From the NCBI GenBank assembly GCA_040752415.1, contig JBFMGU010000030.1, positions 1-56,822 on the forward strand: a stretch of 56,822 bases of DNA. Direction: 5' to 3'. Below the pieces are notes generated by a model. That model searched no databases. It was not told where the DNA came from and worked only from the letters and a program-made list of their open reading frames with translations. Position numbers and translations under genes: made by a program. Below are positions 5,264 through 32,016 of this stretch, piece by piece; position 1 is the first letter of the stretch, and each line of letters opens with the position of its first letter. The stretch comes from Myxococcota bacterium. Lineage in GTDB: Bacteria > Myxococcota > JACRCW01.

Positions 5264-5372
5264 GGATAACCCTCGAGCCCAATCCAGAAAGGGGCCGGAT
5301 TATCGGGCGTTTTACGCATTTGTTGCGTGCGCTGGTGACGACAGGCGACCCGTCACAGGCAGGTTGGTCGAC

Positions 5373-10056: not shown

Positions 10057-10158
10057 TTGAACACGTGGGGCCGCCACGACGTCCCATCGCCGTGCGGAAG
10101 CGTTCTCCCCGCGCCGCGCACCCGTGCTAGTTCACCGCTGAAATCCGGAGGACCGCAC

Positions 10159-10518: not shown

Positions 10519-11660
10519 GCCGCGCCTTCGTGGGATTGCTGGTGCTTGCGCTGGCCGCGTGCGGCGGTCCCGACGAGGAGGAGGTGCGCCTGCGCAACGA
10601 GATCCAGCAGCTCAAGGCCAAGCGTGATGCGCTGGCGATGGAGATCGCGGGTCGGGAGCAGATTCGCAGCGTGCGTCCCGGCCAGGGCGCGGTGGCCGCG
10701 TTGGCTCCCGCGGACCTCGCCGCCGCGTATCAACGCGTCCTTCCGCTCGAGTTCGACGCGGGCCTGCTCGCCAACGAGGTGGAGGGCACCATCGTCGTGG
10801 AGGGCATCCGCGAGGCGACCGTCGACGGAAACACGCTGCGATTCACCGCCACCGGGAGGGGTCGCAACATCAAGCTCAAGGTCTACGTCCCGCCGCCGTA
10901 CGACAAGATGGCGCGGGAGCTCATTGACGGGCTGCAGACCGGGTTGGATCTCAAGCTGCGTGGCCAGCTCGCTTCCCACGACGGCGGCGTGAAGTTCCTG
11001 GGTCGGTGCGAGGGCGCGAAGCTGCACAAGAACGCCAAGGACCAGTACCACCGCCTCATCTGCCAGGGCGTCAATGATCGCCTCCTCAAGGAGGGACATC
11101 CCGTGACGCTGACCGCGGCCCGCAACGGTGCCAATGGCTGGCAGGTGCGTGGCGTGGTTCCCACCCAGGGACGTCTCGTCGTGGTGTTGGGCAGTGACGC
11201 GCCGCAACCGAACGCTCCCGCGCCACCGCCCGCGCCTGGTCCCAAGCCATCCGAGCCCATGGTGCATGCGCCGTCCAAGGAGGACCTGGCCCGTCATTGC
11301 GCGCTGATGCTCAACCAGCTGTGGCTGTGCAAGGCGCAGAGCGTGGACATGATCCTCGACGAGCGGGCCAAGGTGGATGCGGCGTTGGCGTCGGTGGCGG
11401 GCAATCCGGCCAAGCGCGCAGCGGCGCGGGATGGCATCAGCAAGGAGCTGGATCGTGATGGTGGTGGCGCGGAAGGGGAGCGGCTGAACCGGTGTCGCTC
11501 CGACGTCAACGGTGCACCCGCGCAGCTCCCGCAGGACTTCGTGGCGGAATACCAGGCGAGCAAGACGTGCTGGGACCAGCCGTGTCGTGACCGCGCGAGC
11601 TGTTTGCGTCCGTTCGTGGCCGCCGCGTTGAGGACGGACGCGGGACGCTGGCTGCGCTGA
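10515..11660 (+). CDS. Lipoprotein, unknown function (coiled coil, Pro linker, Cys-rich C-terminal domain)
   Basis: Lipobox LAAC; high GC3 codon usage; coupled to the upstream gene. Confidence 0.7.
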   Translation: MSRAFVGLLVLALAACGGPDEEEVRLRNEIQQLKAKRDALAMEIAGREQIRSVRPGQGAVAALAPADLAAAYQRVLPLEFDAGLLANEVEGTIVVEGIREATVDGNTLRFTATGRGRNIKLKVYVPPPYDKMARELIDGLQTGLDLKLRGQLASHDGGVKFLGRCEGAKLHKNAKDQYHRLICQGVNDRLLKEGHPVTLTAARNGANGWQVRGVVPTQGRLVVVLGSDAPQPNAPAPPPAPGPKPSEPMVHAPSKEDLARHCALMLNQLWLCKAQSVDMILDERAKVDAALASVAGNPAKRAAARDGISKELDRDGGGAEGERLNRCRSDVNGAPAQLPQDFVAEYQASKTCWDQPCRDRASCLRPFVAAALRTDAGRWLR

Positions 11661-11667
11661 CAGCGGG

Positions 11668-11926
11668 CCTGCGAGCGACAATGTCTCCGCATGGCGATCG
11701 GCGCTCGCTCTGGAGTGCGGTGTGAGCGCCATTGCGTCCGCGCGCCCCGTGGCAGCGAAGCACCGCCCTGGATCCGTCCACGACGTGGTTCACTGCTCCG
11801 AGGGTCAGCCCGGTGACGCTGATCCAGGGCGGTGCTTCGCGCCACTGGGCATGCGGACGCAATGGCGCTCACACCGCACTCCAGAGCGAGCGCCGGTCCA
11901 CATGCGGAGACATTGTCGCTCGCAGG
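11668..11926. repeat. Long inverted repeat, REP/REPIN-like, arms about 106 bp
   Basis: 11668-11774 is a near reverse complement of 11821-11926; carries TGGAGTGCGGTG and CACCGCCCTGGATC; between convergent genes. Confidence 0.9.
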
Positions 11927-11945
11927 ACGTGGTACCCGGGCGCTT

Positions 11946-13016
11946 TCACGCAAAGTGCGGCATCACTTCCTCGGCAAACGTCTTCATCGACTCCATGATG
12001 AGCTCGTGCGGCACGGTGCCCATCTGCATCACCAGGATCAGCTCGTCGACGCCGATGTCCACGAAGCGTTGCACCGTCTCCCGTGCACACACCGGGTCCC
12101 CCACGATGGTGGCCACCTGCGAGCCCGGCGCATTGCGCAGCTCCATCGCCTCTGTCAGCTCGTGCTCGGAGTGGAAGTCGCGGCTGATGGCCAACTCCCC
12201 CGTCGGACGGTCACCGCCCAGGTAGTAGCGGTTCAGCGCCTCCAGGAAGAACCGCGCGCCCCGCATCCCGTACTGACACGCCTTGCGGTCATCCTTCAGC
12301 ACCAGCGTCGCCGGCGTGCACGCGAAGTGGTTGTTCACCATGCGTCCCACCGGCTTCGCCGTTGCCACTGCGGCCCGGTAATCCGCCACCTTTTGCGTCA
12401 GGTAGTCATCCGAGCCGAACGCGAAGTTCAACGCGCCGAGTCCCAGTCTTCCCACCGCCGCCGCGGTGTCGGGCTTGGAGCACGCCGCGAACATGGGCGG
12501 ATGCGGCTGCTGCACCGGCTTGGGAATGACCTGCGTGGGGGGAATCTTGAAGAACCTCCCCTCGTGGCTGAACACGTCGGCGCTCCACATGCGCGGGATG
12601 ATCTCCACCGCCTCCAGCCACTGTTCGTGCAGCGTGGGGATGTCGTGCTCAAAGGCCTTCTGCTCGACGAGCGAGCTGCTCTTCCCCGATCCCCAGTTCA
12701 CGCGCCCGCCGCTCAGGATATCCAACGTGGCCACGCGCTCGGCGATGCGGATGGGGTGGTTGTAGCGCCAGGGCAGCAGCGTGACGCCGTGACCCACGCG
12801 GATGCGCCTGGTGCGCGCCGCCACGAAGGAGAGGAACACCTCCGGCGCCGACGAGTGCGAGTACTCATAGAGCCCGTGGTGCTCCACCTCCCAGATGCAG
12901 TGGTACCCGAGCTCCTCGGCGAACACGGCCTGGGTCAGGCAATCCTGGAACGTCTGCGCCTCCAGCGCGCGGGTGGGACGGGAGATCTGCATCTCGAAGA
13001 ACAACGAGAACTTCAT
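11946..13016 (-). CDS. LLM-class flavin-dependent oxidoreductase
   Basis: MKFSLF, AEELGY..W.VEHH, HPIRIAERVATLDILSGGR, PKPVQQPHPP. Confidence 0.92.
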   Translation of the reverse strand: MKFSLFFEMQISRPTRALEAQTFQDCLTQAVFAEELGYHCIWEVEHHGLYEYSHSSAPEVFLSFVAARTRRIRVGHGVTLLPWRYNHPIRIAERVATLDILSGGRVNWGSGKSSSLVEQKAFEHDIPTLHEQWLEAVEIIPRMWSADVFSHEGRFFKIPPTQVIPKPVQQPHPPMFAACSKPDTAAAVGRLGLGALNFAFGSDDYLTQKVADYRAAVATAKPVGRMVNNHFACTPATLVLKDDRKACQYGMRGARFFLEALNRYYLGGDRPTGELAISRDFHSEHELTEAMELRNAPGSQVATIVGDPVCARETVQRFVDIGVDELILVMQMGTVPHELIMESMKTFAEEVMPHFA

Positions 13017-17926: not shown

Positions 17927-18037
17927 TCCCGCGGCCTGACGACGACAACCGTCCGCCAACCGGTGGTGCGCGGCGCGCCCTTGATGTCGCGCGCGGATGT
18001 GGGTAGGCCGGAGGCGTCATTCCGCGACGGAGGCGTC

Positions 18038-19069
18038 ATGGGCGCAGCGGTTGCCAGCTGGTCGGGAGCGTCGTCGCTGGTGCGCAGGACGGCCGCGCGG
18101 CTGCAGGCGGCGGGGCGCGTGGGTTTCTACGGTGCCAGCAGCAAGGCGATGTGGAAGAGCGCGTTGCCCTGGACGCAGCTGGAGGAGGAGACGCGCGACC
18201 TCGACCTGCGGGACGCCTATGACCTCCACGTGCGCGTGCTGCAACGCAAGGGCATGCGGCACGTGTTGCGCGCGGTGGAGAAGGAGGACCTGGCCACGCT
18301 GCCCTTCTTTGCGGCGTTCATCCCGCTGGACCTGCTGCGCGTGGCGCGCAAGCGGCGCGGCGGCCTCACCGACCTGCCCGTCTCTCCGCCCGACACGTTC
18401 CCCTACCCCAGCTACTACCTGCACGACTTCCACCATCAGGCCAACGGCAACCTCTCGCTGCGCGCCGCGCTGACCTATGAGTGGCAGATCCGCTTCCTGT
18501 TCCTGGGCACCAACCGGCTCATGCGCCAGGGCGTGGTCGACGAGATTCCACCCGGCGACCACCTGCGCATCCTGGACGTGGCGTGCGGGACCGCCTCCTG
18601 GTTCACGCAGGCGCGGCTGCAGGGTCGACATCACCGCATGCTGGGCGTGGACCTCTCTCCGCACTACCTGCGCGTGGCGCGGCTGTTCCGGGGCAAGCAC
18701 GCGGAGTTCCAGCGGATGGCGGCGGAGGCGTTGGACCCGGGGTGGACCGGCCGCTTTGACGTGGTGACCTGCATCTGGATGTTCCACGAGATGCCGCAGG
18801 ACGCGCGCGACCGCGCCACCGAGGAGATGGTGCGGGTGCTCAAGCCAGGCGGGAAGCTGGTGTTCATGGACGCGGTGCAGCCCGCGGACGTGCCCCACGT
18901 CAACATGCGCGGCGTGGGTGAGCACTTCGAGGACTTCTTCGCCGAGCCCTATTTCGAGGATTACCTGCGCATGGACCTGCCGACGCACTTCGCGCGGCAC
19001 GGGCTGCAGCTGCGCAACACCACGGTGTGGTACCGCAGCAAGGTGATGGCGCTGTACAAGGCGCAGTGA
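18038..19069 (+). CDS. Class I SAM-dependent methyltransferase
   Basis: ILDVACGT, GVDLS, FDVV, FHEMP, RVLKPGG; YYLHDFHHQ family motif. Confidence 0.85.
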   Translation: MGAAVASWSGASSLVRRTAARLQAAGRVGFYGASSKAMWKSALPWTQLEEETRDLDLRDAYDLHVRVLQRKGMRHVLRAVEKEDLATLPFFAAFIPLDLLRVARKRRGGLTDLPVSPPDTFPYPSYYLHDFHHQANGNLSLRAALTYEWQIRFLFLGTNRLMRQGVVDEIPPGDHLRILDVACGTASWFTQARLQGRHHRMLGVDLSPHYLRVARLFRGKHAEFQRMAAEALDPGWTGRFDVVTCIWMFHEMPQDARDRATEEMVRVLKPGGKLVFMDAVQPADVPHVNMRGVGEHFEDFFAEPYFEDYLRMDLPTHFARHGLQLRNTTVWYRSKVMALYKAQ

Positions 19070-19115: not shown

Positions 19116-19625
19116 TTAGTTGCGAGACGGATAGATGCCGAACATGCAGATGATGTAGTTGAGCGCCAGGTACGGCGGCATGTTGTTGTGCGGCTGGCTG
19201 CTTCCCGTGACGCCGACCATGGCGGCATTCATCGTGGTGTTGGGGGTGTTGCTGTAGACGTTGGAGCCGGCCGCCGCCAGGAACGCGTTGGTGGGCTCCG
19301 CCGCCGCGGCGGCCTGGCTGCTCGCGGACACCTGGTGCGTGTGCGCGGGAAGCTCGCTGGTCAGCAGCGTCACGGACTCCGCTCCGCCCAGCTGGCCCAG
19401 GTTGTAGTCGCTCAGACCGGCGCCCTGACCCGCGCCAATGGCGGTGCGTCCCCTCAGGTCCGGCAACGCGAACGTGGTCTGGCCGTTGCCGCCGTAGGTG
19501 GTGCCCAGGATGGAGAACAGCGCCGTGTTCTGGGCGATGGGCAGGATTTGCCCCATGCAGAACGCCCAGCTCTGCGGCGCAAAGTTCCCCGCGAAGAGCC
19601 TGATTTCACCGATGTATCCTTCCAC
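19116..19625 (-). CDS. Phage tail-collar domain protein (MdpB-like), copy 2
   Basis: YIGEIRLFAGNFAP, ALFSILGTTYGGNGQTTFALPDLRGR, HTH, PHNNMPPYL, GIYPSRN; GTG start. Confidence 0.92.
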   Translation of the reverse strand: MEGYIGEIRLFAGNFAPQSWAFCMGQILPIAQNTALFSILGTTYGGNGQTTFALPDLRGRTAIGAGQGAGLSDYNLGQLGGAESVTLLTSELPAHTHQVSASSQAAAAAEPTNAFLAAAGSNVYSNTPNTTMNAAMVGVTGSSQPHNNMPPYLALNYIICMFGIYPSRN

Positions 19626-19696
19626 GATTCACTCCTGTCTGGCGGGTCGCGGCCCCCTCGGCATCCGAAGCTCGCGGCGCACCGTTTCCGGGGCCG

Positions 19697-20200
19697 TCAG
19701 TTCTGCGACGGGAAGATACCGCTGAGGCAGATGATGTAGTTGAGCCCCAGGTAGGGCGGCATGTTCTCGTGCGGCTGGGATCCCCCGACGGACTGCAGGA
19801 GCGCGGAGCCCACCTGCGTTTCGGCCGCGGAGCCGTAGAGCGTGGCTGCGGCGGGATAAGCCCCCGCGGGGCTGGTGGTGGTGCCGGCCGCGCTGGACGC
19901 CGCAATCAGGTGCGTGTGGCTGGGGACCTGGTTCTGGGTGAGGGTCACCGTCTCCACGCCACCCGCCTCACCTTGAGTGCGTGCGGTCAGACCCGACCCC
20001 GTCCCCGCGGACAGCGGGAAACGGCCGCGGAGGTCGGGCAGCGCGAAGGTCGATTCACCGTCGCCGCCGTAGGTGGTGCCGAGGATCGCGAACAGCGCCG
20101 AGTACTCCGCAATCGAGAGCAACTGGCCATTGCAGAACGCCCAGGACAACGGCGCGAAGTTGCCAGCGAACAGGCGGATCTCTCCAAGGTACCCTTCCAC
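19697..20200 (-). CDS. Phage tail-collar domain protein (MdpB-like), copy 1
   Basis: YLGEIRLFAGNFAP, LGTTYGGDG, FALPDLRGR, HTH, PHENMPPYL, GIFPSQN; GGAG RBS and GTG start. Confidence 0.92.
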   Translation of the reverse strand: MEGYLGEIRLFAGNFAPLSWAFCNGQLLSIAEYSALFAILGTTYGGDGESTFALPDLRGRFPLSAGTGSGLTARTQGEAGGVETVTLTQNQVPSHTHLIAASSAAGTTTSPAGAYPAAATLYGSAAETQVGSALLQSVGGSQPHENMPPYLGLNYIICLSGIFPSQN

Positions 20201-20219
20201 GGATCCACTCCTTCCCGCG

Positions 20220-20645
20220 TCACGCCCGACGGATGTTGAACACTGCCTGGTAGTAGACCGTGCCGTCGGCACGCGGGCGGTCCACCTGGGACACGAAGAT
20301 GTCCTGCCGCGGCAATCCCCGACCCCGCAGCGGCAGGGGCACACGGGGCGCCTTCGCCAACGGCTGCCCCACGAACAGCACGGAAAAACTCACGAACTCA
20401 CCCACGCCCTTGGCCACCATCACCTTCTTCTCGGTGGTCTCCACCACCTCCAGCGGATGGATGGCGCCGTCTTCCAGCACAAGGTCGACCCGTTCCCCGC
20501 GCAACGCGCTGAAGGACTGGTGGGTCTCCTCGGCGCTGGGCTTTCGCTCGACACACGCGCCTCCGGCCACCACCACCGCGCCCGCCAGGCCGAGATGGAG
20601 CAATTCGCGTCGGTTAAGCGCTGCGGGAGCAAGGGGCATGGGCAT
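20220..20645 (-). CDS. Tat-signal lipoprotein, DUF6916-like
   Basis: NRRELL twin-Arg, hydrophobic stretch and GGAC; FSVLF.G, IFVSQV and terminal YQAVFN typical of DUF6916. Confidence 0.7.
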   Translation of the reverse strand: MPMPLAPAALNRRELLHLGLAGAVVVAGGACVERKPSAEETHQSFSALRGERVDLVLEDGAIHPLEVVETTEKKVMVAKGVGEFVSFSVLFVGQPLAKAPRVPLPLRGRGLPRQDIFVSQVDRPRADGTVYYQAVFNIRRA

Positions 20646-20828
20646 TTCCGGGGGAGGGGATGCGTCATCCTTGTGAGCCCGGCCGCGGAAGTCAACCCCA
20701 ATCTTTAGCTCTCACCGAAAACACTTCTAAACCACGTAGTCCTTGGCAGCGCACCTCGGAAGTGACACTGTGGCGCGCCTCTTCGTCGCTCGCCGGCGCT
20801 CCCCTCACAAGCCTCTTTCGGGTTGGCC

Positions 20829-23800
20829 ATGACCACCACGCTTTCCCCACGTCGTTCCGTCCCAGGTCACGCCGTCGTGACGCGCTTCTTCTCCGCGCTC
20901 GTGCTGGTGCTCGCTGGGGTGATGGGCGGCGGCAACGCCCGGGCCACCACGTTCAGCAGCAGCTCGCTGGAGTCGGGGGACGGTGCCGCCAACGTCTTCA
21001 GCGGCGCGGCCCACAACGTCGACGGTGACAGCTTCGCCTTCTGGCGTGACGGCGAGGGCTCCTCCGCAACCTACCGTCTCATGAAGTGGAATGGGACCGC
21101 GTGGAGCACGGTGGGCTCGTTTGCGGCCACCAGCGTGTCCGGCCTCACCGGCGCCAGTGACGACGTCTCCCTGGCCATCGACAGCACCGGCGGTTTCCAC
21201 GTGGTCTTCCGCGGCTACGCGGGGAGCGGACTGAGCAGCACGCGCGCGGTCTGGTACGGATACAGCACCGCCGGGACGTCGTGGTCGTTCACCCAGCTGC
21301 ACGCCGCCAGCAGCGCCCAGGGCTTCTCCAACCTTGACGACCCCATGGTCCGACTGGACGCGGGCAACCGCCCGCACGTGGTGTTTCTCGTCGTGGATGC
21401 TTCCGGCGGCAGCACCCATTCCCTGCGCCACCACCACCACGACGGCACCAGCTGGCAGTCCGAGGTGATCTACTCCCAGACCGGCGGCGGCACGGAGCGC
21501 AACGAGATCAACGACTTCTCCTTTGACCTCGACCTGGACGGCAAGCTCCACGTGGCGTTCCAGGGCGAGAGCGTCGGCACCGGCACCGACGGCGGCCTCT
21601 GGTACGTCACCAACAGCAGTGGAAGCTGGAGCGTCCCCGTGATCCTGGCAGCGGGCGCGGCGGGCTCACCGCAGGCGGAGGACGTGAGCCTGGCGGTCGA
21701 CGGCGCGGGCAAGGTCCACATCGCCCACCGCAACAAGGACAGCGAGCAGAAGATCTTCCACACCAGCAACGTGTCGGGCTCCTTTGTGAACCACGGTCAG
21801 CTCAACGGGAGCGTGACGGGCACATTCAACGCGTCGTCGCTGCGGGCCAACACCGACGGAGACCTCCTGCTCGCCTACCACGCCGGCTCCGGGGTCATCC
21901 GCGCGGCCCACAAGTTCCATGACTCTTCTGCCTGGGACGTGGACCTGGCGTTCACCGGCAACGGACACACCGGCATGTTCATCTCCGCGGACCTCACCGA
22001 CGCGGGCCAGGCCACCATCCTCTTCGACCACCTCCCCGGCGGCGGCACCCCCGGCGCAGGCAACCCGCGGGAGCTGCGCGGTGCCACGGCCACCTACAGC
22101 GCCTGCACCCCCAGCACGGAGGTTTGTGACGGCGTGGACAACAACTGCGACGGCGCCACCGACGAGGGCAACCCCGGCAGCGGCGAGGCGTGCAACACCG
22201 GGCTGCAGGGCGTGTGCGCCGCCGGCACCACCGCGTGCAGCGGCGGATCCATCTGGTGCAACCAGAACGTGCAGCCCAGCACCGAGACCTGCGACGGACT
22301 GGACAACAACTGCAACGGCACCACCGACGAGGGAAACCCCGGCGGCGGGCAGCAGTGCAGCACGGGACTCCTGGGCGTGTGCTCCACGGGAACCACCGCG
22401 TGCAGCGGCGGATCCCTGCAGTGCAACCAAAACGCGCAGCCCAGCGCCGAGGCCTGCGACGGACTGGACAACAACTGCAACGGCGCCACCGACGAGGGAA
22501 ACCCCGGCGGCGGGCAGCAGTGCAGCACGGGACTCCTGGGCGTGTGCTCCACCGGAACCACCGCGTGCAGCGGCGGATCCCTGCAGTGCAACCAAAACGT
22601 GCAGCCCAGCGCCGAGGCCTGCGACGGATCGGACAACAACTGCAACGGCGCCACCGACGAGGGAAACCCCGGCGGCGGGCAGCAGTGCAGCACCGGACTC
22701 CTGGGCGTGTGCTCCGCCGGCACCACCGCGTGCAGCGGCGGATCGATCTGGTGCAACCAGAACGTGCAGCCCGGCACCGAGACCTGCGACGGACTGGACA
22801 ACAACTGCAACGGCGCCACCGACGAGGGAAACCCCGGCGGCGGGCAGCAGTGCAGCACGGGACTCCTGGGCGTGTGCTCCGCGGGAACCACCGCGTGCAC
22901 CAACGGCTCCGTCGCCTGCAACCAGAACGTGCAACCCAGCGCCGAGGCCTGCGACGGACTGGACAACAACTGCAACGGCGCCACCGACGACGGAAACCCC
23001 GGCGGCGGCGTGGCGTGCGTATCCGCCTACCCCGGCGTCTGCTCCGCCGGCACCACGGCCTGCGAGGAGGGCGCGCTGGCATGCAACCCGGATGTGGCGC
23101 CGGGCAGCCAATACGAGACGGGCGACGGCCAGGACAACGACTGCGACGGCAACGTTGACGACGGCGTGCCAGTGATCCTGCAGGGCCCGCCCGCGGTGGT
23201 GATCGTCGGTGACCTGGTGACGCTGCGCGGTCGCGTCTTGCCCCTGCCGGTGTCCCAGCCGCTGGAGTTCGTGTCCGACGACGTGGTGCTGTGTTCCGGT
23301 GCTGTCGACGGTGAGGGGCAGGCCACGTGCACCTGGCAGGTCACCGAGCCGGGCGAGTACAACGTGTTCGCGCGCAACTGGGAGAACGGCAACGCGCTGG
23401 TGAGCGCCACCCAGCACACCACCGCGTATGGCGACGCCACGGTGACGGAGTTCCCACAAAGCGTCTACGCCCGGCCCAATGTCCCCGTGGACGTGGCGGT
23501 GGACGTGCGCGTGGACAACACCAACCGCGACCCCATCGCGGACGAGGCCGACGGTGACGAGGTGGAATTCCTCGTCGACGGCGAGCCGGCGGACCTGGTG
23601 ACCGCCTCCAGCCAGGGTCGCTTCGAGGCCACCGCGCTGGTCTTCAGCAGCACGGGCAGCTACGCGCTGGATGCGCTGTACTCCGGTCAGCTTCATGACT
23701 ACGCGCCCAGCGCAGCGTCCACCACCGTGGTTGTCGACGGAGATTTTCCGGTGGTGAGCGTTCCGCCCAACATCGTCGTGGAGGCCAACAGCGCCGCGGG

Positions 23801-24464
23801 CATGGTGGTCACCTGGTCTCCGGCCACCGCCACCGACGCGACGAGCGGCGTGGCGTCCCTGACCTGCAGCGCCACCTCCGGGAGCGTGTTTGCCGTCACC
23901 AGCGGCCCGGTGACCGTGACCTGCACCGCCACCGACCGCGCGGGAAACCAGGGAAGCGCCAGCTTCACCGTCTGGGTCCGCGACACCACGGCGCCCACCC
24001 TCACCGTCCCCGGGCCAATCGTCGTGGAGCCCACATCGACCGCGGGCGCGGTGGTGAGCTTCTCCGTCGGCGCCACCGACACGGTCGACCCCGCTCCCGC
24101 GGTGGGCTGCGACCGCGCCTCCGGCGCGACGTACCCGCTGGGCACCACCACCGTGACCTGCACCACGTCGGACGCGCAGGGCAACACGTCGGTGCGCAGC
24201 TTCACCATCACCGTGCGCGACACGCGACCGCCGCTGGTCCGCATCACCATCGCCAAGACGGTGCGCGCTCCCAGCCCCAGCGGCGTGGTGTTGAACTTCA
24301 CCGCCAGCGCCACCGACCTCGCCGACGGCAACCTGGTCCCGGTGTGCACGCCCGCGTCGGGCTCGCTGTTCCCGGTGGGCAGCACCACCGTGACCTGCCG
24401 GGCCACCGACTCCAGCGGCAACATGGGAAGCGCGAGCGCGCTGGTTCGCGTCACCTACCCCTGA
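20829..24464 (+). CDS. Large secreted protein: beta-propeller-like N-terminus, Cys-rich (MopE-related/myxobacterial metal-binding) repeats, Ig-like domains, three HYR domains
   Basis: Signal peptide ending ARA; SLAID..G..HVV blades; EACDGLDNNCNGATDE repeats; DTTAP...SG..FP.G.TTVTC.ATD..GN HYR units. Confidence 0.88.
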   Translation: MTTTLSPRRSVPGHAVVTRFFSALVLVLAGVMGGGNARATTFSSSSLESGDGAANVFSGAAHNVDGDSFAFWRDGEGSSATYRLMKWNGTAWSTVGSFAATSVSGLTGASDDVSLAIDSTGGFHVVFRGYAGSGLSSTRAVWYGYSTAGTSWSFTQLHAASSAQGFSNLDDPMVRLDAGNRPHVVFLVVDASGGSTHSLRHHHHDGTSWQSEVIYSQTGGGTERNEINDFSFDLDLDGKLHVAFQGESVGTGTDGGLWYVTNSSGSWSVPVILAAGAAGSPQAEDVSLAVDGAGKVHIAHRNKDSEQKIFHTSNVSGSFVNHGQLNGSVTGTFNASSLRANTDGDLLLAYHAGSGVIRAAHKFHDSSAWDVDLAFTGNGHTGMFISADLTDAGQATILFDHLPGGGTPGAGNPRELRGATATYSACTPSTEVCDGVDNNCDGATDEGNPGSGEACNTGLQGVCAAGTTACSGGSIWCNQNVQPSTETCDGLDNNCNGTTDEGNPGGGQQCSTGLLGVCSTGTTACSGGSLQCNQNAQPSAEACDGLDNNCNGATDEGNPGGGQQCSTGLLGVCSTGTTACSGGSLQCNQNVQPSAEACDGSDNNCNGATDEGNPGGGQQCSTGLLGVCSAGTTACSGGSIWCNQNVQPGTETCDGLDNNCNGATDEGNPGGGQQCSTGLLGVCSAGTTACTNGSVACNQNVQPSAEACDGLDNNCNGATDDGNPGGGVACVSAYPGVCSAGTTACEEGALACNPDVAPGSQYETGDGQDNDCDGNVDDGVPVILQGPPAVVIVGDLVTLRGRVLPLPVSQPLEFVSDDVVLCSGAVDGEGQATCTWQVTEPGEYNVFARNWENGNALVSATQHTTAYGDATVTEFPQSVYARPNVPVDVAVDVRVDNTNRDPIADEADGDEVEFLVDGEPADLVTASSQGRFEATALVFSSTGSYALDALYSGQLHDYAPSAASTTVVVDGDFPVVSVPPNIVVEANSAAGMVVTWSPATATDATSGVASLTCSATSGSVFAVTSGPVTVTCTATDRAGNQGSASFTVWVRDTTAPTLTVPGPIVVEPTSTAGAVVSFSVGATDTVDPAPAVGCDRASGATYPLGTTTVTCTTSDAQGNTSVRSFTITVRDTRPPLVRITIAKTVRAPSPSGVVLNFTASATDLADGNLVPVCTPASGSLFPVGSTTVTCRATDSSGNMGSASALVRVTYP
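22125..23114 (+). repeat. Intragenic tandem repeat, six units of 165 bp (55 aa)
   Basis: CDG units start at 22125, 22290, 22455, 22620, 22785 and 22950; a degenerate seventh starts near 23121. Confidence 0.92.
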
Positions 24465-24554
24465 CCGCGTTTGCCGTCGTCACCGCAGGGCCACGGTGCA
24501 GTCCGCGCTGGCGGTGCCGTGGACGCTCCCGCGCGCGCCGTGACACCGTGGGTC

Positions 24555-25703
24555 ATGCGCATCCACTCCATCCGCCTGCCTCTGCGCTTCAACGCAGCCG
24601 CAATGTTGGCGGAGGTGCTGGCCCTCCCCACGACGTGGCGCCCGCACGACAACCAGGGTGACTACACCGGGGAATGGCAGGCGCTGGCCTTGCGCTCGCT
24701 GGGGGGCAGCCTCACCAACCTGATGGGCGAAGGCGCGCCGGGCGTACGGTTCCTGGACACCGCGCTCCTGGCCGCATGCCCCACCATTGCGCATGCGGTG
24801 AACGAGCTGCAGTGCGAGAAGCGGTCGATCCGGGTGCTGAACCTGAAGCCCGGTGCCGTCATCAAGGAGCACCACGACCCGGGGCTCTCCTACGAGGACG
24901 GCCTGGCGCGCATCCACATCCCGCTGCAGACGCACAGCGGAGTCCGCTTCACGGTGGCGCGTCGGCTGGTGCCCATGCAGACGGGAGAGTGCTGGTACGT
25001 GAACTTCAGCGCGCCCCACGGCGTCGTCAATGAGGGCGCGGTCGACCGCATCCACCTGGTGCTGGACTGCGTGGTCAATGACTGGATCCACCACCTGTTC
25101 CAGAATGCTCCCGAGAGAGAAGCCATGGACGAATCCGAGCTCGCGCGCGCCAAACCGGCAGCTCCCCACCCCGCTCCCGCGGATGGTCCCGTGGACCAGG
25201 CCCTGCTCACGAGGATTACCGCGTTCCTCGACGAGATCGGGATTCCCTGTCGTGCCGGCACCATCTCGCGCGCCACCGTGTTGCCGGGGTTGGACATCCA
25301 GGACGGAGTGCTCCTCTTTGACCTGTCACGGCGCCCCCACCTGGGCGACCTCCTGCACGAAGCGGGTCACCTGGCCGTGTTGAAGCCGGACGTCCGCGCC
25401 ACGGCGACCGCGCCCGACAACCTCGTGGGAGACCTGGACGTGGGGGCGGCGGAGATGGGGGCGATTGCGTGGTCCTGGGCCGCGGTGGTGCATCTGGGCC
25501 TGGACCCGGAGGTGGTGTTCCACGCACACGGCTACCGCGGGAATGCACGGCAGCTCGTCGCGGACTTCAAGGCGGGACGGTACCTGGCGGTTCCGCTGCT
25601 GCAGTGGATGGGGATGACCACCGACCCGCATGGTCGCGGGCCGCGGGGAACGCAGGTCTATCCCGCCATGAAGCACTGGCTAAGGCCGGCTTCCCCCACC
25701 TGA
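24555..25703 (+). CDS. Aspartyl/asparaginyl beta-hydroxylase (2OG-Fe) domain fused to a C-terminal HExxH domain
   Basis: IKEHHD (HxD), RIHIPL, GECWY.N...PHGV.N, RIHLVLD; Pro/Ala linker; GDLLHEAGHLA...AEMGAIAWS...YPAMKHWLR. Confidence 0.85.
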   Translation: MRIHSIRLPLRFNAAAMLAEVLALPTTWRPHDNQGDYTGEWQALALRSLGGSLTNLMGEGAPGVRFLDTALLAACPTIAHAVNELQCEKRSIRVLNLKPGAVIKEHHDPGLSYEDGLARIHIPLQTHSGVRFTVARRLVPMQTGECWYVNFSAPHGVVNEGAVDRIHLVLDCVVNDWIHHLFQNAPEREAMDESELARAKPAAPHPAPADGPVDQALLTRITAFLDEIGIPCRAGTISRATVLPGLDIQDGVLLFDLSRRPHLGDLLHEAGHLAVLKPDVRATATAPDNLVGDLDVGAAEMGAIAWSWAAVVHLGLDPEVVFHAHGYRGNARQLVADFKAGRYLAVPLLQWMGMTTDPHGRGPRGTQVYPAMKHWLRPASPT

Positions 25704-25709
25704 GCGCGC

Positions 25710-27548
25710 TTACGGGAGGACGGGAACATCACCCGCGGAGGACGGAGACTCGTTGTCACCGATGTTGTTGGTGTTCCCATAGCCCAGCTGACCCGACGCA
25801 CCGATGCCCCAGCACCGCACTCCGTTGTCCAACCGCGCGCAGGTGAACGCCGTGCCGGTCCCCACCGCGGACACCCCTCCACCCACGTCGACGTCACCGG
25901 CGAAGGAAGGCGCCTCGTTGTCGCCGATGCTGAACGAGTTCTCGTAGCCCAGCTGGCCCGACGCGCCACTGCCCCAGCAGCGGACGTTGCCGTTGGTCAG
26001 CGTCACACAGGTGTGGCTGCCGCCACAGGAGACCTGCTGCACGGAGCCGCCCACGGCCACGGCACCCGCGGAGGCAGGGAACTCGTCGTCGCCAATGTTG
26101 TCGGTGGCGCCGTAGCCCAGGCGTCCGTCGGAACCCTCGCCCCAGCACACCACGCTGCCGGACTCGAGGAGCGCACAGGTGTGGCGCGCGCCGGCGGAGA
26201 TCTGGACCACCGCGTCGCCAAGCGGGACCAACCCCGCGGCCGCGGGCACCTCGTTGTCGCCCACCGTGGTGGTGTTTCCATAGCCCAGCTGCCCCAGGAC
26301 CCCGTAGCCCCAACACACCACCGCCGCGCTCGAGAGCAGCGCGCACGTGTGGGAACCGCCCGCAGCCAGGGCAACCGCCACGTCCCCGACGTCCACGTTG
26401 CCGGCTGACGCGGGCGTCTCGTTGTCCCCGATGTCGTCGCCGTTCGCGTATCCCAGGCGCCCGTTGGCGGCGGCGCCCCAGCAGCGGATGCTGCCGTAGT
26501 TCAGCAGCGCACACGTGTGGGCTGCGCCGGCGGCCAGGTCGACCACCACGCCGCCGACGTCCACATCGCCAACGGAGGCGGGCGCCTCGGTGTCGCCGAC
26601 GGGGTTGATGTTGCCGTAGCCCAGGCGACCATTGGCGGCCCGGCCCCAGCACCGCACGCTGCCGTTGCTCAGCAACGCACACGTGTGATCGTCCCCCGCC
26701 ACCACCTTGGTCACCGCCCCGCCCACGTTGACGTCGCCAGCGGAGCGGGGCTCCTCGTTGTCACCGATGTCGAAGACGTTGCCGTAGCCCAGCTGACCAT
26801 GATCTCCGTCGCCCCAGCAGCGAACGGCTCCGGTGTTCAACAGCACGCAGGCATGTCGCCCCCCCACCGCCAGCCCCACCAACGGACCACCCGCCGAGGA
26901 GGAACTGCTCGACGAGCTGGACGACGACGACGACGACGATGAGGACGAAGACGACGAGGAAGTGCTGGAGGACGCTCCGCTGCTGGAGGTCGATGACGTG
27001 GAGGTGACGGAGCTGGTGGAGGACGAGGAGGAAGAGCTTCCTGATGATGTCGACGAACTGGAGGAGACCGACGAGCTGGAAGGCGACGTCGCGGACGAGC
27101 TGCTGGAAGACGACGATGACGAGCTGGAGGAACTCGCTGAGCTGGTGCCCGGCGCGCTGCTTGAGGTCTGCGCCCCGGATGAGGACGAGGATGATGCGCT
27201 GCTCGACGTCGCCGTCAACGCGGACGAGGAGGACGTGCTGGTGGAGGAGGATGAAGCCGTCGAGCTTGCGGAGGAAGAAGACGTGCTCGAACCGGTCGAC
27301 GAGGTGTGCAGGGAGGAGCTCGAACCCGTGCTGCTGCTGGAACCCAACCCGCCATCCGCCGTCGCGGCGACGCAGTGCCCCTCCGCGCAGGTCTCTCCCA
27401 GCGCGCAATCCGCCGCCTCCGTGCACGCCACCGGCACCGTGCACGACGTCGTCACGAGACCGGAAACCACGACGAGGAAGACCGGGAGCTGCGCGCTCCA
27501 GCGCGGTCGCGCGGACGTCGCCAGGGAGTGGAGTGCGGTGAACTTCAT
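25710..27548 (-). CDS. RCC1-repeat beta-propeller protein with long Ser-rich stalk, probable lipoprotein
   Basis: About seven AG..HTCALL..G.VRCWG....G.LGYGN repeats; TTSC lipobox-like; Cys-rich mini-domain. Confidence 0.9.
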   Translation of the reverse strand: MKFTALHSLATSARPRWSAQLPVFLVVVSGLVTTSCTVPVACTEAADCALGETCAEGHCVAATADGGLGSSSSTGSSSSLHTSSTGSSTSSSSASSTASSSSTSTSSSSALTATSSSASSSSSSGAQTSSSAPGTSSASSSSSSSSSSSSSSATSPSSSSVSSSSSTSSGSSSSSSSTSSVTSTSSTSSSGASSSTSSSSSSSSSSSSSSSSSSSSSSAGGPLVGLAVGGRHACVLLNTGAVRCWGDGDHGQLGYGNVFDIGDNEEPRSAGDVNVGGAVTKVVAGDDHTCALLSNGSVRCWGRAANGRLGYGNINPVGDTEAPASVGDVDVGGVVVDLAAGAAHTCALLNYGSIRCWGAAANGRLGYANGDDIGDNETPASAGNVDVGDVAVALAAGGSHTCALLSSAAVVCWGYGVLGQLGYGNTTTVGDNEVPAAAGLVPLGDAVVQISAGARHTCALLESGSVVCWGEGSDGRLGYGATDNIGDDEFPASAGAVAVGGSVQQVSCGGSHTCVTLTNGNVRCWGSGASGQLGYENSFSIGDNEAPSFAGDVDVGGGVSAVGTGTAFTCARLDNGVRCWGIGASGQLGYGNTNNIGDNESPSSAGDVPVLP

Positions 27549-28820: not shown

Positions 28821-30890
28821 CTACCAGCCGCGCACCGGCTCCTTCATGGCGTTCACGGCGTGGGAAGGCCGGCGCCCACCGCGCCTTCCGTGACGACGTC
28901 CTTCCCCCTGCATGGACACGCGCACCGGCTCATGGCCCGGCTGCACGCGCCACATCCCCGGCGAGGCGGCGACCGCGGACAACGCGTCGGCGAGCGCACG
29001 GTAGTCACCGCGGGACACCTTGCGCCGCTGGTTCACGAGCTCATCCCAGATGGCACCCTCGTTCTCCGCGGAGATGCGTGCCACCTCGGCCACGTCGAAG
29101 CGCGCGCGCACGGTCTGCGGACGCGCGCCGGGAATGGCGCGACGCACGTCGGAGAAGCGGCGGAAGCAGTCCACGCCGAAGTGCGCGTAGTAGAGCAGCG
29201 TGTGCGCCGTGGAGAGCGCGCCCGCCCACGGGTAGTGCTCCAGCCACCAGCGACGGGACAGGTTCCCCAGCGCCTCGTCGACCTTCTCGCGCTCGTCGTC
29301 GTTCTTGGGGTCCTTCGTCTCGCGGTAGAAGAGCCCCAGGCCCAGCTCATCACCGGCCACCCGCCACGTCTCCGCAATGCCGAACTCCGACGGAGACTGG
29401 GCCACCAGCGAGCCCTTGGTGAGGTCGAACTCCCCGCAGATGAACAGCGAGATGTTCTCGGTGAGCCCGTCGACGAAGCGCACGGTGGCCATGGCCTCGC
29501 GGTAGCTCTCGGTGGGGAAGTCGGTGAAGCACATGGCCTCCACGCCGATGCCCGCGTGCGAGAGGTTCTGGATGGCCGTCTTCACCGCGTCGACGGGGAC
29601 CCCCTTGTCGATGAGGTCCAGCACGCGCGGGCTGGCGCTCTCCACGCCCACCGCCATGGACAACGCGCCGCCGCGCCTCAGCTCGTCGCACAGCTCGGGC
29701 TTGAGGGAGCGTTCCGGGCGCATGTCGGTGGCCCAGCGGAACGGCGTGCCTTCCGCCGTGAGCGCGCGCGCCACCTTCAGCACCGTCTTGGGGTTGACCG
29801 CGTCCTGCGAGAAGTAGAACACGCGGACACCATGTCGCGCGTGCAGCTCACGCAGGTGCTCCATGACGACGTCGACGGGCCGCTCGCGGTAGCGCGCCGT
29901 TCCCACCTCGGCCAGGCCGTAGTGACAGAAGGTGCACTTCCCCCAGTAGCAGCCGCGTGTGGGGTCATACGGGAGCACCAGCTCCGGCGTGAAGTAGCGG
30001 TCAAGCGGGAGGCCCTCGTAGTCGGGCGCGGGCAGCTCGGAGAGGTCCTCGGTCTGCTCGCCGCGGATGAGGGAGGCGGGCCTCTCGCCGCGCTCCAACG
30101 TGCGCACCAGCTCCAGCAGCGCGCGCTCGCCCTCGTAAGTGACCACGGTGTCGAACGGCCCGCGCGCGCGCTCCAGGCGTTCTCCGTCGAGACCCTGGAA
30201 CAGCTGCGTCAACGCGGGGCCGCCGACGACGAGATGCACGCCCGGCACCATCTTCCGGAGGATGTGCGCCAGCGCGTACGCGGGTTGCACCTGGCCGGGG
30301 AACGCCACGCTGATGCCCACACACAGCGGCGCCGCCGCGCGCACGCGCTCGACGAGCGGACCGGCGAAATACCCGTAGAACGGGTTGCGCTCCTCCCGCG
30401 CGTCCGCCTCCACCTCCTCGGCGTTGAGCAGCGAGAAGGGCGTCTTGTAACCGGTGAAGGTCAGGCTCAAGGGCGCGTACGCCGCGCTCACCACGCGCAG
30501 GGCCGCATCCACCGTCGCCACCGCGCCGGCGTACGTGGGTGGGTCGTAGAAACGCTCGCCGCTGCGGTCCCGGATGACCTGCACCGCGTCGTCAATGGCG
30601 GCGGGAACCGTGCGCGCTTCCGCCCGCGCCGACCAGAGTGCGCTGTACAGGAGCTGCTCGGTGTGACGGAGCGTGGGCTTGCGCTCCAGCCGCTCCAGTC
30701 GCGACTCGACGCGTGCCGCCAAGGTCTCCATGCGCTCCCGACGCAGCAGCCAGTCGAACGCTTCCACGTTGGCGTCGATGGGAACGACGTCGACACCGTG
30801 CGTGCGCAGGTATCCCGCCAGGGTGGGCACCGAGAGGTAGGGTGCCGTCGGGTCGCAGGCCGGCGGGTAGATGAGCACGGTCTTGGGCAT
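28821..30890 (-). CDS. B12-binding-domain radical SAM enzyme
   Basis: PYLSVPTLAGYL, GISV, VVGGP, YEGE; RGCYWGKCTFC (CxxxCxxC); GVESAS.RVL; FPTE. Confidence 0.9.
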   Translation of the reverse strand: MPKTVLIYPPACDPTAPYLSVPTLAGYLRTHGVDVVPIDANVEAFDWLLRRERMETLAARVESRLERLERKPTLRHTEQLLYSALWSARAEARTVPAAIDDAVQVIRDRSGERFYDPPTYAGAVATVDAALRVVSAAYAPLSLTFTGYKTPFSLLNAEEVEADAREERNPFYGYFAGPLVERVRAAAPLCVGISVAFPGQVQPAYALAHILRKMVPGVHLVVGGPALTQLFQGLDGERLERARGPFDTVVTYEGERALLELVRTLERGERPASLIRGEQTEDLSELPAPDYEGLPLDRYFTPELVLPYDPTRGCYWGKCTFCHYGLAEVGTARYRERPVDVVMEHLRELHARHGVRVFYFSQDAVNPKTVLKVARALTAEGTPFRWATDMRPERSLKPELCDELRRGGALSMAVGVESASPRVLDLIDKGVPVDAVKTAIQNLSHAGIGVEAMCFTDFPTESYREAMATVRFVDGLTENISLFICGEFDLTKGSLVAQSPSEFGIAETWRVAGDELGLGLFYRETKDPKNDDEREKVDEALGNLSRRWWLEHYPWAGALSTAHTLLYYAHFGVDCFRRFSDVRRAIPGARPQTVRARFDVAEVARISAENEGAIWDELVNQRRKVSRGDYRALADALSAVAASPGMWRVQPGHEPVRVSMQGEGRRHGRRGGRRPSHAVNAMKEPVRGW

Positions 30891-30978
30891 GACGCGGGAG
30901 ATAGTGCCGCCCACCTGACGTCGCAAGCAGCCCGCACCCACGTGACGCCACCGACGGAATCCGACATCATGGAAACCC

Positions 30979-32016
30979 ATGCGTCACTTCCGCCTCCTGC
31001 TCCTCTGTGCGGCCACCGCGGGCTGCGCATCCACCGCGCGCGCACCCGCCCCCTCGCCGGCGTCCCTGCAACTCCCCGCGCGGTGGCAGAGCCCGCTCGA
31101 CGTGACGCATCCGCTGGTGGGTCGCATCTGGGATCCCGCGATGCAGGCGTGGCGCACCGGCGACGAGGTCCTGGCGCGCCTGCTCGCCGCCGACGTGGTG
31201 CTGCTGGGCGAGACGCACGACAACCCCGACCACCACCTGCTGCAGGCCGCGGTGCTCGACGCGCTGGTGCGCTCGGGCCGTTCTCCGTCGGTGGCGTGGG
31301 AGATGATGGACGTGGACCAGCAGGCGACGCTCGACGGCTATCTGCGTGGCAGCAACGTCACCACCGACGGCGTGGGGCACGTGGTGCAATGGGAGGAGCG
31401 CGGTTGGCCGGAGTGGGACATGTACGCGCCCATTGCCCGCGTGGCGCTCACCGCGAAGCTCTCCCTCCTTGCCGCCAACCTTCCGCTGGCGCGGGTGCGT
31501 GCGCTCATCCGCCAGGGACCGGGCGCGTTGTCGTCGACGGAACGGGCCGCGTTGCACCTGGACACACCGTTTCCTCCCGAGTTGCAGGCGGCGGTGGAAG
31601 AGGAGATGTCGCTCTCACATTGCGGTCACCTCCCGACGGAGATGCTGCCCGCCATGGCCTTGGCGCAGCGCGCGCGTGACGCGCAGATGGCGCAGGTGAT
31701 CCGTAACGCAAAGCCGCCGGTGGTGCTCATCAGCGGCGCCGGCCACGCGCGCACCGACCGCGGCGTTCCCTTCCACCTGCGGGCGCAATCTCCGTCGCTG
31801 CGCGTGGTGAGCGTGGCGTTCCAGGAGGTGGCCCCCGAGGCGCAGGAGCCCACGGGCTACCGGGAGCTGTACGGCGCGGACGTGATTCCGTTTGACCTGG
31901 TCTGGTTCACCCCGCGCCTCCCCGAGGAGGACGCCTGCGCGCGCATCCCGCATCCTGCGCCCAAGCCCAAGCCGCCCACGCTGCGCACCGCGCCGCCGGT
32001 GACGGTGGACATCTGA
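30979..32016 (+). CDS. ChaN-family (haem uptake, Tiki-like) lipoprotein
   Basis: Lipobox TAGC; VLLGETHDNPDHH, WEM, SHCG, QRARDAQMA, GAGH. Confidence 0.88.
   Translation: MRHFRLLLLCAATAGCASTARAPAPSPASLQLPARWQSPLDVTHPLVGRIWDPAMQAWRTGDEVLARLLAADVVLLGETHDNPDHHLLQAAVLDALVRSGRSPSVAWEMMDVDQQATLDGYLRGSNVTTDGVGHVVQWEERGWPEWDMYAPIARVALTAKLSLLAANLPLARVRALIRQGPGALSSTERAALHLDTPFPPELQAAVEEEMSLSHCGHLPTEMLPAMALAQRARDAQMAQVIRNAKPPVVLISGAGHARTDRGVPFHLRAQSPSLRVVSVAFQEVAPEAQEPTGYRELYGADVIPFDLVWFTPRLPEEDACARIPHPAPKPKPPTLRTAPPVTVDI

Follow-up and report, generated by a model that had tools for sequence, protein, structure and literature searches.

The contig JBFMGU010000030.1 of a Myxococcota bacterium, analysed at its full length of 56,822 nt and called the window hereafter (contig C224 of the source genome), carries at positions 19116–25703 a locus of five genes (Table 1) that is read here as belonging to a widespread cellular cassette based on phage tail-fibre-tip proteins, of which it would be a reduced copy of the hydroxylase type. 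In this reading, which is put forward tentatively and with confidence a little short of even, the small tip proteins (collars) would be hydroxylated in the cytoplasm and exported together with a protein of the DUF6916 family. The left arm of the locus encodes two collar paralogs and the DUF6916 protein, and the right arm encodes a giant secreted protein followed by an aspartate/asparagine hydroxylase (AspH) fused to a zincin-like domain, also called the hub domain below. A cassette of this kind is already in print as a prediction, and the locus of the window is its reduced hydroxylase-type form.

Collars, DUF6916 and the hydroxylase gene form a cassette that recurs in other genomes. A search with the zincin-like domain alone (alignment A1, nine domains from different fusions) gave 600 stretches, of which 533 encode a relative, and the best 80 of these at least 533 relatives, with flanks of up to 10 kb, were scanned with profile models of our own, seeded from the window and from homologues of the fusion. 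The hub-centred loci come from Bacteroidota, Acidobacteriota, Planctomycetota, Verrucomicrobiota, Alpha- and Betaproteobacteria, Chloroflexota, Actinomycetota and Ignavibacteriota. Between one and three collars lie in the flank of 31 of the 80 loci, to be compared with only 0–4 collar matches in whole genomes of 5–11 Mb. Collars are found nearby in five of the six loci where the domain is fused to AspH and in 21 of the 25 with an AspH gene within 1.5 kb, that is, in 26 of the 31 loci with AspH fused or adjacent, against five of the 49 without AspH in the vicinity. The one fused locus where no collar was seen (L069) breaks off 303 bases upstream of its fusion gene. P0002, the best-matching homologue of the window fusion (42%), is encoded in L014 beside three collars, DUF6916, GNAT and PhyH genes, and collars, DUF6916, AspH and the zincin-like domain stand together in at least seven loci from at least five phyla (L014, L016, L019, L033, L036, L055 and L082). 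Within the phylum of the window, DUF6916 is present in three of 61 genomes (the window's own and two of 60 relatives), each time with collars within 2 kb, and the zincin-like domain was found in none of the 60 relatives. For synteny with close relatives, the family of the source genome offers one other genus.

A second sample was centred on the collars and consisted of metagenome contigs, where 601 of 603 stretches were confirmed; the best 80 of these at least 601 include 29 loci of at least 8 kb. In these 29 loci, GNAT was found in 16, DUF6916 in 16 (own models), an open reading frame (ORF) of at least 850 residues in 20, AspH in five and the zincin-like domain in three. Our own DUF6916 model, built from seven loci, missed the window copy at an E-value of 1e-3, so that the DUF6916 counts in other loci are lower bounds. 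The window resembles the commoner metagenome form, made of a giant, collars, GNAT and DUF6916, in having its collars beside DUF6916, a giant next door and no phage genes. It differs from that form in having two collars instead of three, no GNAT, an AspH/zincin-like fusion and Asn-ending collars. The window is a mixed, minimal form, which has two collars and combines the DUF6916 of the common form, with its twin-arginine translocation (Tat)-type signal, and an AspH/zincin-like gene as in the rarer hydroxylase form. Forms with one or two collars also occur in L036, L038, L043, L047, L093 and L168. Own profile models found no GNAT, sulfotransferase or PhyH in 9001–36000, and Pfam detected no sulfotransferase, PhyH, 3′-phosphoadenosine 5′-phosphosulfate (PAPS) synthetase or acetyltransferase among the window ORFs, in line with the initial annotation of the locus, made from sequence alone, which had called this copy reduced. 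That annotation had also grouped collars, DUF6916 and hydroxylase into one non-phage cluster, and the counts of 26/31 loci, 16/29 loci and at least seven loci with all four components bear this out. Its expectation that all five families co-occur elsewhere holds for the collars, DUF6916 and the AspH/zincin-like gene; the giant recurs by one region only, made of HYR domains.

Some observations weigh against so close a bond between the domain and the collars. The zincin-like domain is rare in the collar-centred sample (3/29), and 49 of the 80 hub-centred loci have no collar in their flank, many of them from Xanthobacteraceae in housekeeping synteny. Four collar-less hub genomes were checked; a collar triplet is present elsewhere in two of them, and the other two gave no collar match. 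The 49 loci and the two genomes indicate that the domain family is wider than the cassette.

Individual loci add detail to this picture. The architecture nearest to that of the window is found in a cultured isolate, Denitromonas halophila SFB-3 (L036; NZ_VMNK01000012.1, about 8800–12620), which encodes an AspH–domain fusion, GNAT, two Asn-ending collars that flank a Tat-type DUF6916, and another DUF6916 without signal. In a locus of the window's own phylum (L087; G038:C188, 465–7957), DUF6916 and three collars adjoin asparagine-synthase-like, HPr-kinase-C-like and Sulfotransfer_1 genes, a trio that resembles the tailoring sets of lasso peptides; the locus also contains an NlpC/P60 gene. Genes that often come after the collars in hydroxylase-type loci encode a Peripla_BP_6-like protein, which has no evident transport partner, and a formyltransferase (Formyl_trans_N + C), as in L093:11121–13226 and L168:5860–7996; each was seen in 17 loci, and neither is present in the window. 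Methyltransferases also recur in hydroxylase-type collar loci.

The two collars of the window score 98.5 and 99.8 bits against PF07484 (cut-off 24) and are 58% identical to each other. The GTG start of collar 2, whose open frame extends to 20344, was picked by likeness to collar 1. Both proteins consist of the Collar domain and the tip part only, with no shaft and no baseplate-binding part, and the domain starts at the very N-terminus, which leaves no room for a signal peptide; the pair of signal-less tail-collar paralogs annotated in the left arm was thus recovered. PHROG tail and tail-fibre families span nearly all of these small proteins (residues 6–161), and their sequence matches in the PDB are 8KEC, the tip of a long fibre, and gp12 of phage T4 (1OCY, 1PDI). 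The HxH metal motif (H95, H97) is invariant in 59 of 59 aligned collars and aligns with SHQH of 8KEC. A quick tree of 68 collars had low resolution, with 13 of 65 inner branches starred and the window collars in none of the starred sets; L004 (the other collar of the genome), L020 (whose envelope started late) and L082_1 (truncated by the end of its contig) were left out. In several loci the paralogs group with each other on this tree, which points to local duplication. The other Collar gene of the genome, its third, lies at C471:33280–34404 (L085:9280–10404, minus strand) in a 375-residue frame with the Collar domain at residues 175–231; beside it are genes for a trypsin-like protease that bears an Lcl_C domain, a 1,000-residue HYDIN/ASH-type Ig-repeat protein and Hsp70, with no phage genes nearby.

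A candidate site of modification emerged from the comparison of 74 collars from 36 AspH loci (window included) with 89 collars from 34 loci that have GNAT and no AspH, one collar having been dropped for its length. The 44 loci with neither enzyme (43 metagenome loci and L087) stand outside this count. The column that best discriminates between the two classes is the last residue. It is Asn in 66, Asp in seven and Thr in one of the AspH-locus collars, whereas the GNAT-only collars end in Asn (27), Ser (27), Thr (20), Gly (5), Gln (4) or, for the remainder, other residues. All collars of a locus end in Asn or Asp in 35 of the 36 AspH loci and in two of the 34 GNAT-only loci (Fisher p = 3e-16, uncorrected for kinship). 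These two are contigs shorter than 3 kb, and none of the 16 GNAT-only loci of at least 8 kb behaves in this way. The tail reads ...PSRN in 55 of the 74 AspH-class collars; the window collars end in ...PSRN (collar 1) and ...PSQN (collar 2) and match the AspH-class consensus at most of the class-discriminating positions. Because the enzymes of the PF05118 family hydroxylate Asp and Asn, and the Ser and Thr of the other class already have a β-hydroxyl, the last residue is a natural candidate target. The annotated role of the oxygenase in maturing a collar gains support from the 35 of 36 loci, in the form of a correlation only.

The same comparison also holds evidence that tempers this proposal. 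The collars of one AspH locus, L034, end in Asn, Asn and Thr. When a FastTree phylogeny of 163 collars was computed without the last residue, it contained only two supported independent pairs, both in the same direction (sign test, p at least 0.5); the correlation between AspH and a terminal Asn or Asp is not independent of kinship, and it is not significant after the kinship check. In addition, Asn tails occur without AspH in the long loci L123, L127 and L160. The forward rule, by which AspH is accompanied by Asn or Asp tails, holds, and the reverse rule does not.

The hydroxylase half of the fusion protein scores 59.5 bits against PF05118 (cut-off 22.6) and has an intact iron-binding HxD...H triad, whose residues H106, D108 and H155 are the same in all 22 relatives aligned. 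The fusion has no signal and is the only PF05118 match in the genome. The content annotated for the right arm, a protein of about 1.2 thousand residues and an Asp/Asn hydroxylase–HExxH fusion, was confirmed by Pfam and by the presence of HEAGH. The C-terminal half of the hydroxylase gave no Pfam match at E-values up to 5, no sequence relative in the PDB and no PHROG family, and by these searches it is an undescribed zincin-like domain, new here. A word-based search with the whole fusion, followed by confirmation of the domains, found it with different partners at 40–53% identity: AspH, GNAT, sulfotransferase, EutC-like and PhyH, as well as standing alone. It follows AspH in many proteins of 334–420 residues, GNAT in proteins of about 356–365 and sulfotransferase in proteins of about 500; it is C-terminal to an EutC-like domain in some proteins and N-terminal to a PhyH dioxygenase in others. 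There are 691 representatives at E-values of at most 1e-3 among 1.84 billion, mostly stand-alone proteins of 160–175 residues. In 71 aligned members, H58, E59, H62, E90 and H113 (domain numbering) are conserved at 90% or more.

The AlphaFold2 (AF2) model of the domain (predicted local distance difference test, pLDDT, 95.3; predicted template modelling score, pTM, 0.91) has three strands, an HExxH helix (54–64) and a later helix (86–104) with E90, which is the layout of zincins. Foldseek gave nothing at E-values of at most 1e-3. With VIA-align, most of the 50 matches listed have the HExxH metallopeptidase fold, including ArdC (Z 5.3), BepA (4.8), CapP (4.5), Spartan, selecase and abylysin, and the second in rank is the elongation factor P (EF-P) hydroxylase EpmC/YfcM (4PDN; Z 5.2, root-mean-square deviation 4.2, 102 residues). 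Against a firmer assignment stand the scores themselves, all of which are at most Z 5.3 and under the level that the tool considers trustworthy. Given weak zincin fold matches and no sequence relation, the domain is called zincin-like only. No sequence or profile relation to E. coli EpmC was found; hhalign gave a probability of 1.7% and aligned only the HExxH stretch. The domain may be a peptidase, an EpmC-like hydroxylase or a plain binding module. Stand-alone copies in Xanthobacteraceae and other Alphaproteobacteria (L021, L032, L039, L041, L045, L053, L062, L072 and similar loci) lie in a conserved housekeeping neighbourhood of outer-membrane β-barrel, ferritin, phosphoglucosamine-mutase-like, adenylosuccinate synthetase and phosphoribosyl pyrophosphate (PRPP) synthetase genes, with no collars nearby, from which it follows that the domain must also have a role outside the cassette.

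The third protein of the left arm matches PF21880 at 40.1 bits (cut-off 27) over residues 41–136 and is the single copy of DUF6916 in the genome. A word-based search with it returned only itself and no close homologue, and the name DUF6916 was not found in the literature. Read from the ATG at 20645, its N-terminus (...LNRRELLHLGLAGAVVVAGGAC) contains the twin-arginine motif LNRRELL, a hydrophobic stretch and then AGGAC. This start was preferred because the longer DUF6916 proteins have RRxF[IL] at the aligned place: in the long form (L019, L033, L036, L055 and L078) this motif precedes a hydrophobic stretch, and LNRRELL of the window aligns with it. A short form without signal is found in L016, L028, L082 and the second copies of L033 and L036. 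TatC is present in the genome, and AGGA-C is compatible by eye with the lipobox rule of PROSITE PS51257. The window DUF6916 protein is a candidate Tat-exported lipoprotein. Of the lipoprotein annotated at this place, the Tat part agrees with the twin-arginine motif and with TatC, provided that the start is at ATG 20645; the public gene call begins at a TTG 14 codons later, gives 127 residues and leaves the RR motif out. The lipid part is weakened by the lipobox Cys, which occurs in the window copy only and in none of the other aligned DUF6916 proteins.

The AF2 model of the protein (pLDDT 84.3, above 90 across most of residues 40–140) predicts for the mature part a small split β-barrel, with matches to YcgR-N and MrkH-N at Z 8.0–9.2. 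As modelled, this is a common fold that is uninformative on the function of DUF6916. Compared with viral models, it had no match at E-values of at most 1e-3; the weak matches, phage head–tail adaptors among them, are not informative. Tat hitch-hikers are known from Escherichia coli, where signal-less partners are exported with a signal-bearing protein, as in HybO/HybC and DmsA/DmsB. For the window locus it is plausible, judging from the signals of the encoded proteins, that the collars are exported by hitch-hiking on the Tat-signal DUF6916, because they have no signal of their own, probably need a metal-bound trimer and are presumably tailored with cytoplasmic cofactors. Such a route cannot be general, since many DUF6916 proteins have no signal.

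The giant protein of the right arm starts with a signal-like stretch and an unassigned N-terminal region, continues with six Cys-rich MopE repeats (PF11617, E = 2e-33) and ends in three HYR domains (PF02494, E = 3e-24); the tandem array within its gene encodes the Cys-rich repeats of 55 residues. For the N-terminal region the leading matches, to BNR_4, scored only 0.81, a value that the tool itself equates with chance. The giant gene separates the collar arm from the enzyme gene, which directly follows it, and a giant beside collars is common elsewhere: ORFs of at least 850 residues were found at a distance of up to 3 kb from the collars in 15 of the 31 hub-centred collar loci, against seven of the 49 hubs without collars. 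These other giants belong to several unrelated types of secreted repeat protein (SprB, TIG/Big, cadherin-like, MBG, DUF7933 and type IX sorting tails). An iterative search of all ORFs of about 160 loci with the HYR region found as relatives four giants only, in the AspH-type collar loci L093, L142 and L155, and Pfam recognises HYR/HYR_4C in these giants. That the giant belongs with the collar and enzyme cassette is likely.

Which of these proteins form one system, and what the enzyme acts on, can be read in other ways. In one of them the system would consist of the collars, DUF6916 and the fusion gene only, and the giant would be a native, unrelated surface protein that came to lie inside the locus by chance. 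Apart from the HYR region, no part of the giant has relatives in other collar loci, and blastp with the giant over the 80 hub-centred loci (E 1e-4) found none. MopE proteins form a native class that is common here, with 109 repeat matches in about 35 frames on many contigs of this genome (for example, the 1,737-residue frame at C135:58987–62715) and none in 14 control genomes, and the rarity of the other cassette parts in the phylum, with DUF6916 in 2/60 relatives and the zincin-like domain in 0/60, fits an acquired module placed beside a host gene. These points weigh against the inclusion of the giant. Set against them are its position between the two arms of the cassette, the adjacency of giants to collars in both samples (15/31 versus 7/49, and 20/29 of the collar-centred loci of at least 8 kb), the HYR-type giants of three AspH-type loci and the third-position GC content (GC3) of the five genes, which at 0.83–0.91 is host-like, so that any acquisition of the module was not recent and no recent insertion is visible; with all this in view, a merely accidental giant is rather unlikely. 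A decayed prophage or tailocin, or collars that serve a contractile injection system encoded elsewhere, would account for the full-length homology of the collars to phage tail-fibre tips, and is very improbable all the same. The other 34 window ORFs encode cellular families only, with no phage-type family in Pfam, and among the window proteins only the two collars matched PHROG tail families; the initial exclusion of a prophage or tailocin thus stands for the sheath, tube, baseplate and capsid families of the window. The phage sheath PF04984 was not found in the 96.8%-complete genome, where tube and baseplate families were not searched genome-wide, and PADLOC-DB 2.0 contains no family for any of the five proteins (E at most 0.01). 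The third collar gene of the genome likewise lies among non-phage genes, the cassette recurs in the chromosomes of many phyla, and the zincin-like domain has no match in 50,697 phage records and three weak loci in IMG/VR (3/58 pattern hits confirmed), by which measure this domain is cellular.

Other readings keep the genes together and change the substrate. The enzymes might tailor a small molecule, a glycan or a lipid, for which the collars would be lectins; LpxO, a member of PF05118, hydroxylates lipid A. Hub neighbours elsewhere resemble glycan-decorating sets (sulfotransferase, formyltransferase in 17 loci, carbamoyltransferase in eight, methyltransferase in seven and Peripla_BP_6-like in 17), and related fibre tips are reported to bind lipopolysaccharide (PMC12724248). 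The window, however, has none of those extra enzymes and no glycosyltransferase adjoining the locus, the link between AspH and the last residue of the collars would be left unexplained, and the zincin-like domain suggests, weakly, a peptide or protein ligand. This substrate is accordingly considered unlikely. The remaining candidate, the Asp/Asn-rich Cys repeats of the giant, would be hydroxylated before export by the Sec (general secretory) pathway, and the collars would be a separate neighbouring module. In its favour, the giant and fusion genes are co-directional and 90 bp apart, the repeats (CDGLDNNCNGATDEG...) are rich in Asp, Asn and Cys, the sole AspH match of the genome coexists with about 35 MopE-bearing frames, and animal AspH hydroxylates Asp and Asn in the Cys-rich domains of the epidermal growth factor (EGF) type. 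By inspection, however, the repeat does not contain the EGF hydroxylation consensus (C-x-D/N-x4-Y/F-x-C-x-C), no MopE-type relative of the giant was found in about 160 other loci, AspH with the zincin-like domain follows the collars in 26 of 31 loci, and the Asn/Asp pattern of the collar C-termini would have no counterpart. A role of the giant as the substrate is therefore distinctly unlikely.

In the preferred reading, hydroxylation of the collars followed by their export, the two collar paralogs would fold in the cytoplasm as metal-bound trimers similar to the tips of T4 gp12 and gp37; the conservation of HxH is observed, and trimerisation is a prediction. Cytoplasmic AspH would then β-hydroxylate the collars, most likely at the C-terminal Asn, as the correlation with the last residue suggests; tailoring is placed before export because the enzymes need 2-oxoglutarate (2OG) and Fe and, like the collars, carry no signal. 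From its fusions and gene position, the zincin-like domain would act in the same pathway, either by holding the collar tail or as a metal-dependent hydrolase or EpmC-like hydroxylase. The folded collars would leave the cytoplasm with the Tat-signal DUF6916, possibly lipid-anchored in this bacterium. The HYR/MopE giant, probably co-transcribed with the enzyme gene, would be the surface scaffold or partner; assembly of the collars on it is the weakest step, suggested by gene position, by the recurrence of non-homologous giants and by the HYR giants of three loci. By analogy with the fibres of phages and virophages, the end function is likely to be a carbohydrate-binding surface tip. Counting against the scheme as a whole, the modification, binding and export of the cassette members are predictions made from gene content.

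A bolder and doubtful extension treats the zincin-like domain as a tail-handling module, which would grip the free C-terminal ...PSRN at the base of the trimer and present the last residue to interchangeable enzymes (AspH here; sulfotransferase, PhyH, GNAT and formyl- or carbamoyl-transferase elsewhere), the tips then being exported in folded form through Tat on a DUF6916 carrier and mounted on giant HYR/Ig adhesins. If true, this would be a bacterial counterpart, derived from a domesticated phage part, of the hydroxylated and sulfated proteins of the extracellular matrix. Small cellular tail-collar proteins are common in many phyla, and the prediction made in 2010 that they are hydroxylated and sulfated has no follow-up that was found in the literature. 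The minimal form of the window, with two collars, one exported helper and one enzyme gene, makes a simple test system, and the analysis provides as leads a previously unnamed domain by which five types of tailoring enzyme are linked to collars, a candidate site of modification, and a cultured bacterium in which the fusion has the same architecture. Confirmation of the preferred reading would reveal the bacterial re-use of a phage receptor-binding tip as a decorated surface lectin, together with a new route of protein modification.

The source genome comprises 11.0 Mb in 520 contigs, is 96.8% complete and has a GC content of about 69%. All five ORFs are present at their annotated coordinates with the domains named, according to the ORF listing and Pfam (Table 1). 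The two arms diverge, as annotated, from a spacer that is AT-richer (61.7% GC) than the whole window (68.9%), in which no sigma-70-like consensus was found. No terminator-like site was found in the 90 bp between the giant gene and the fusion gene, which lie on the same strand. The public gene calls begin the fusion at 24555, the giant at ATG 20829 and the DUF6916 protein 14 codons later.

Table 1. Genes and other features of the locus at 19116–25703 (positions in the window)
Feature	Position	Strand	Details
Collar paralog 1	19116–19625	-	169 aa; PF07484, E 2e-28
Collar paralog 2	19697–20200	-	167 aa; PF07484, E 8e-29
DUF6916 protein	20220–20645	-	141 aa; PF21880, 40.1 bits
Divergent intergenic spacer	20646–20828	.	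183 bp; 61.7% GC
Giant secreted protein	20829–24464 (alternative start 20823)	+	about 1,211–1,212 aa; PF11617 and PF02494
Tandem array within giant gene	22110–23008	+	165 bp × 5.4 copies, 90% matches
HYR region of giant	23613–24461	+	residues 931–1213
AspH fusion gene	24555–25703 (alternative TTG 24471)	+	382 aa from ATG 24555
AspH domain	24633–25070	+	PF05118, 59.5 bits
Zincin-like domain	25185–25700	+	about 165 aa (last 172 residues); HEAGH and downstream Glu

On both sides the locus is flanked by convergent genes. The gene at 17963–19069 (plus strand), 46 bp from collar 1, encodes a 368-residue S-adenosylmethionine (SAM) methyltransferase with a UbiE/CpaM-like domain at residues 170–310 and no assigned family for the N-terminal 170 residues. 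On the other side, 6 bp past the stop of the fusion gene, the gene at 25710–27548 (minus strand) encodes a 612-residue protein whose N-terminus is signal-like and which contains RCC1 repeats (PF25390, PF13540 and PF00415) and about 170 residues of Ser-rich, low-complexity sequence. Neither protein has a relative in the 80 hub-centred loci (blastp, E 1e-4). The wider window also encodes a 719-residue B12-binding radical SAM protein (28821–30980, minus strand) and a 911-residue FG-GAP/thrombospondin-type-3 repeat protein (2567–5299, minus strand), neither of which was linked to the locus by the analyses made.

The closest published description is that of gene neighbourhoods in which β-hydroxylase, PhyH–methyltransferase, sulfotransferase, acetyltransferase and PAPS synthetase genes occur with T4 tail-collar or collagen-like proteins, where the collars were proposed to be substrates that are hydroxylated and then sulfated (Iyer, Abhiman, de Souza, & Aravind, 2010, Nucleic Acids Res; PMC2938197). 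The initial annotation knew of no established function for such collars; a published prediction does exist in that study, and a survey of the literature, judged from titles and the openings of abstracts, found no functional study of cellular collars, so that as regards experimental function the statement stands. The window shares with these neighbourhoods a cytoplasmic AspH-type β-hydroxylase encoded with small tail-collar proteins outside phage and differs from them, as the published account describes them, in that sulfotransferase, PhyH, PAPS synthetase and acetyltransferase are all absent. In its main text, the study mentions no HExxH motif, peptidase or protease, DUF6916, Tat export or giant partner.

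The individual parts also have known counterparts. Minigluzincins (selecase 4QHF, abylysin 4JIU), ArdC (6SNA) and BepA (6SAR) share with the zincin-like domain a small three-strand architecture, an HExxH helix and a following helix with an invariant Glu. EpmC/YfcM (4PDN), which acts on a protein side chain, is reported to bind iron by His59, His63 and Glu98 (PMC4231759), and the predicted metal ligands of the domain are at nearly equal positions. From both groups the domain is separated by the lack of a sequence relation and by weak fold scores (Z at most 5.3). With Tat hitch-hiker export, the locus would have in common one small protein with a twin-arginine signal and folded, here predicted, metal-binding partners without signal; unlike in that system, many DUF6916 proteins have no signal, and DUF6916 is a predicted split β-barrel. 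The fibre tips of T4 (gp12, 1OCY and 1PDI) and 8KEC are related to the collars through the Collar domain and the HxH homology, whereas the window proteins have no shaft, are chromosomal, lie beside tailoring enzymes and are only predicted to form trimers. Adjacent gp37-like paralogs of the virophage DSLV2 are reported to form a heterotrimer of three that binds lipopolysaccharide (J Virol, 2025; PMC12724248). They are structural proteins of a virus, the abstract mentions no tailoring enzymes, and they number three where the window has two; as adjacent small collar-like paralogs, they nevertheless provide a model for what the two or three collars of a cellular cassette may build.

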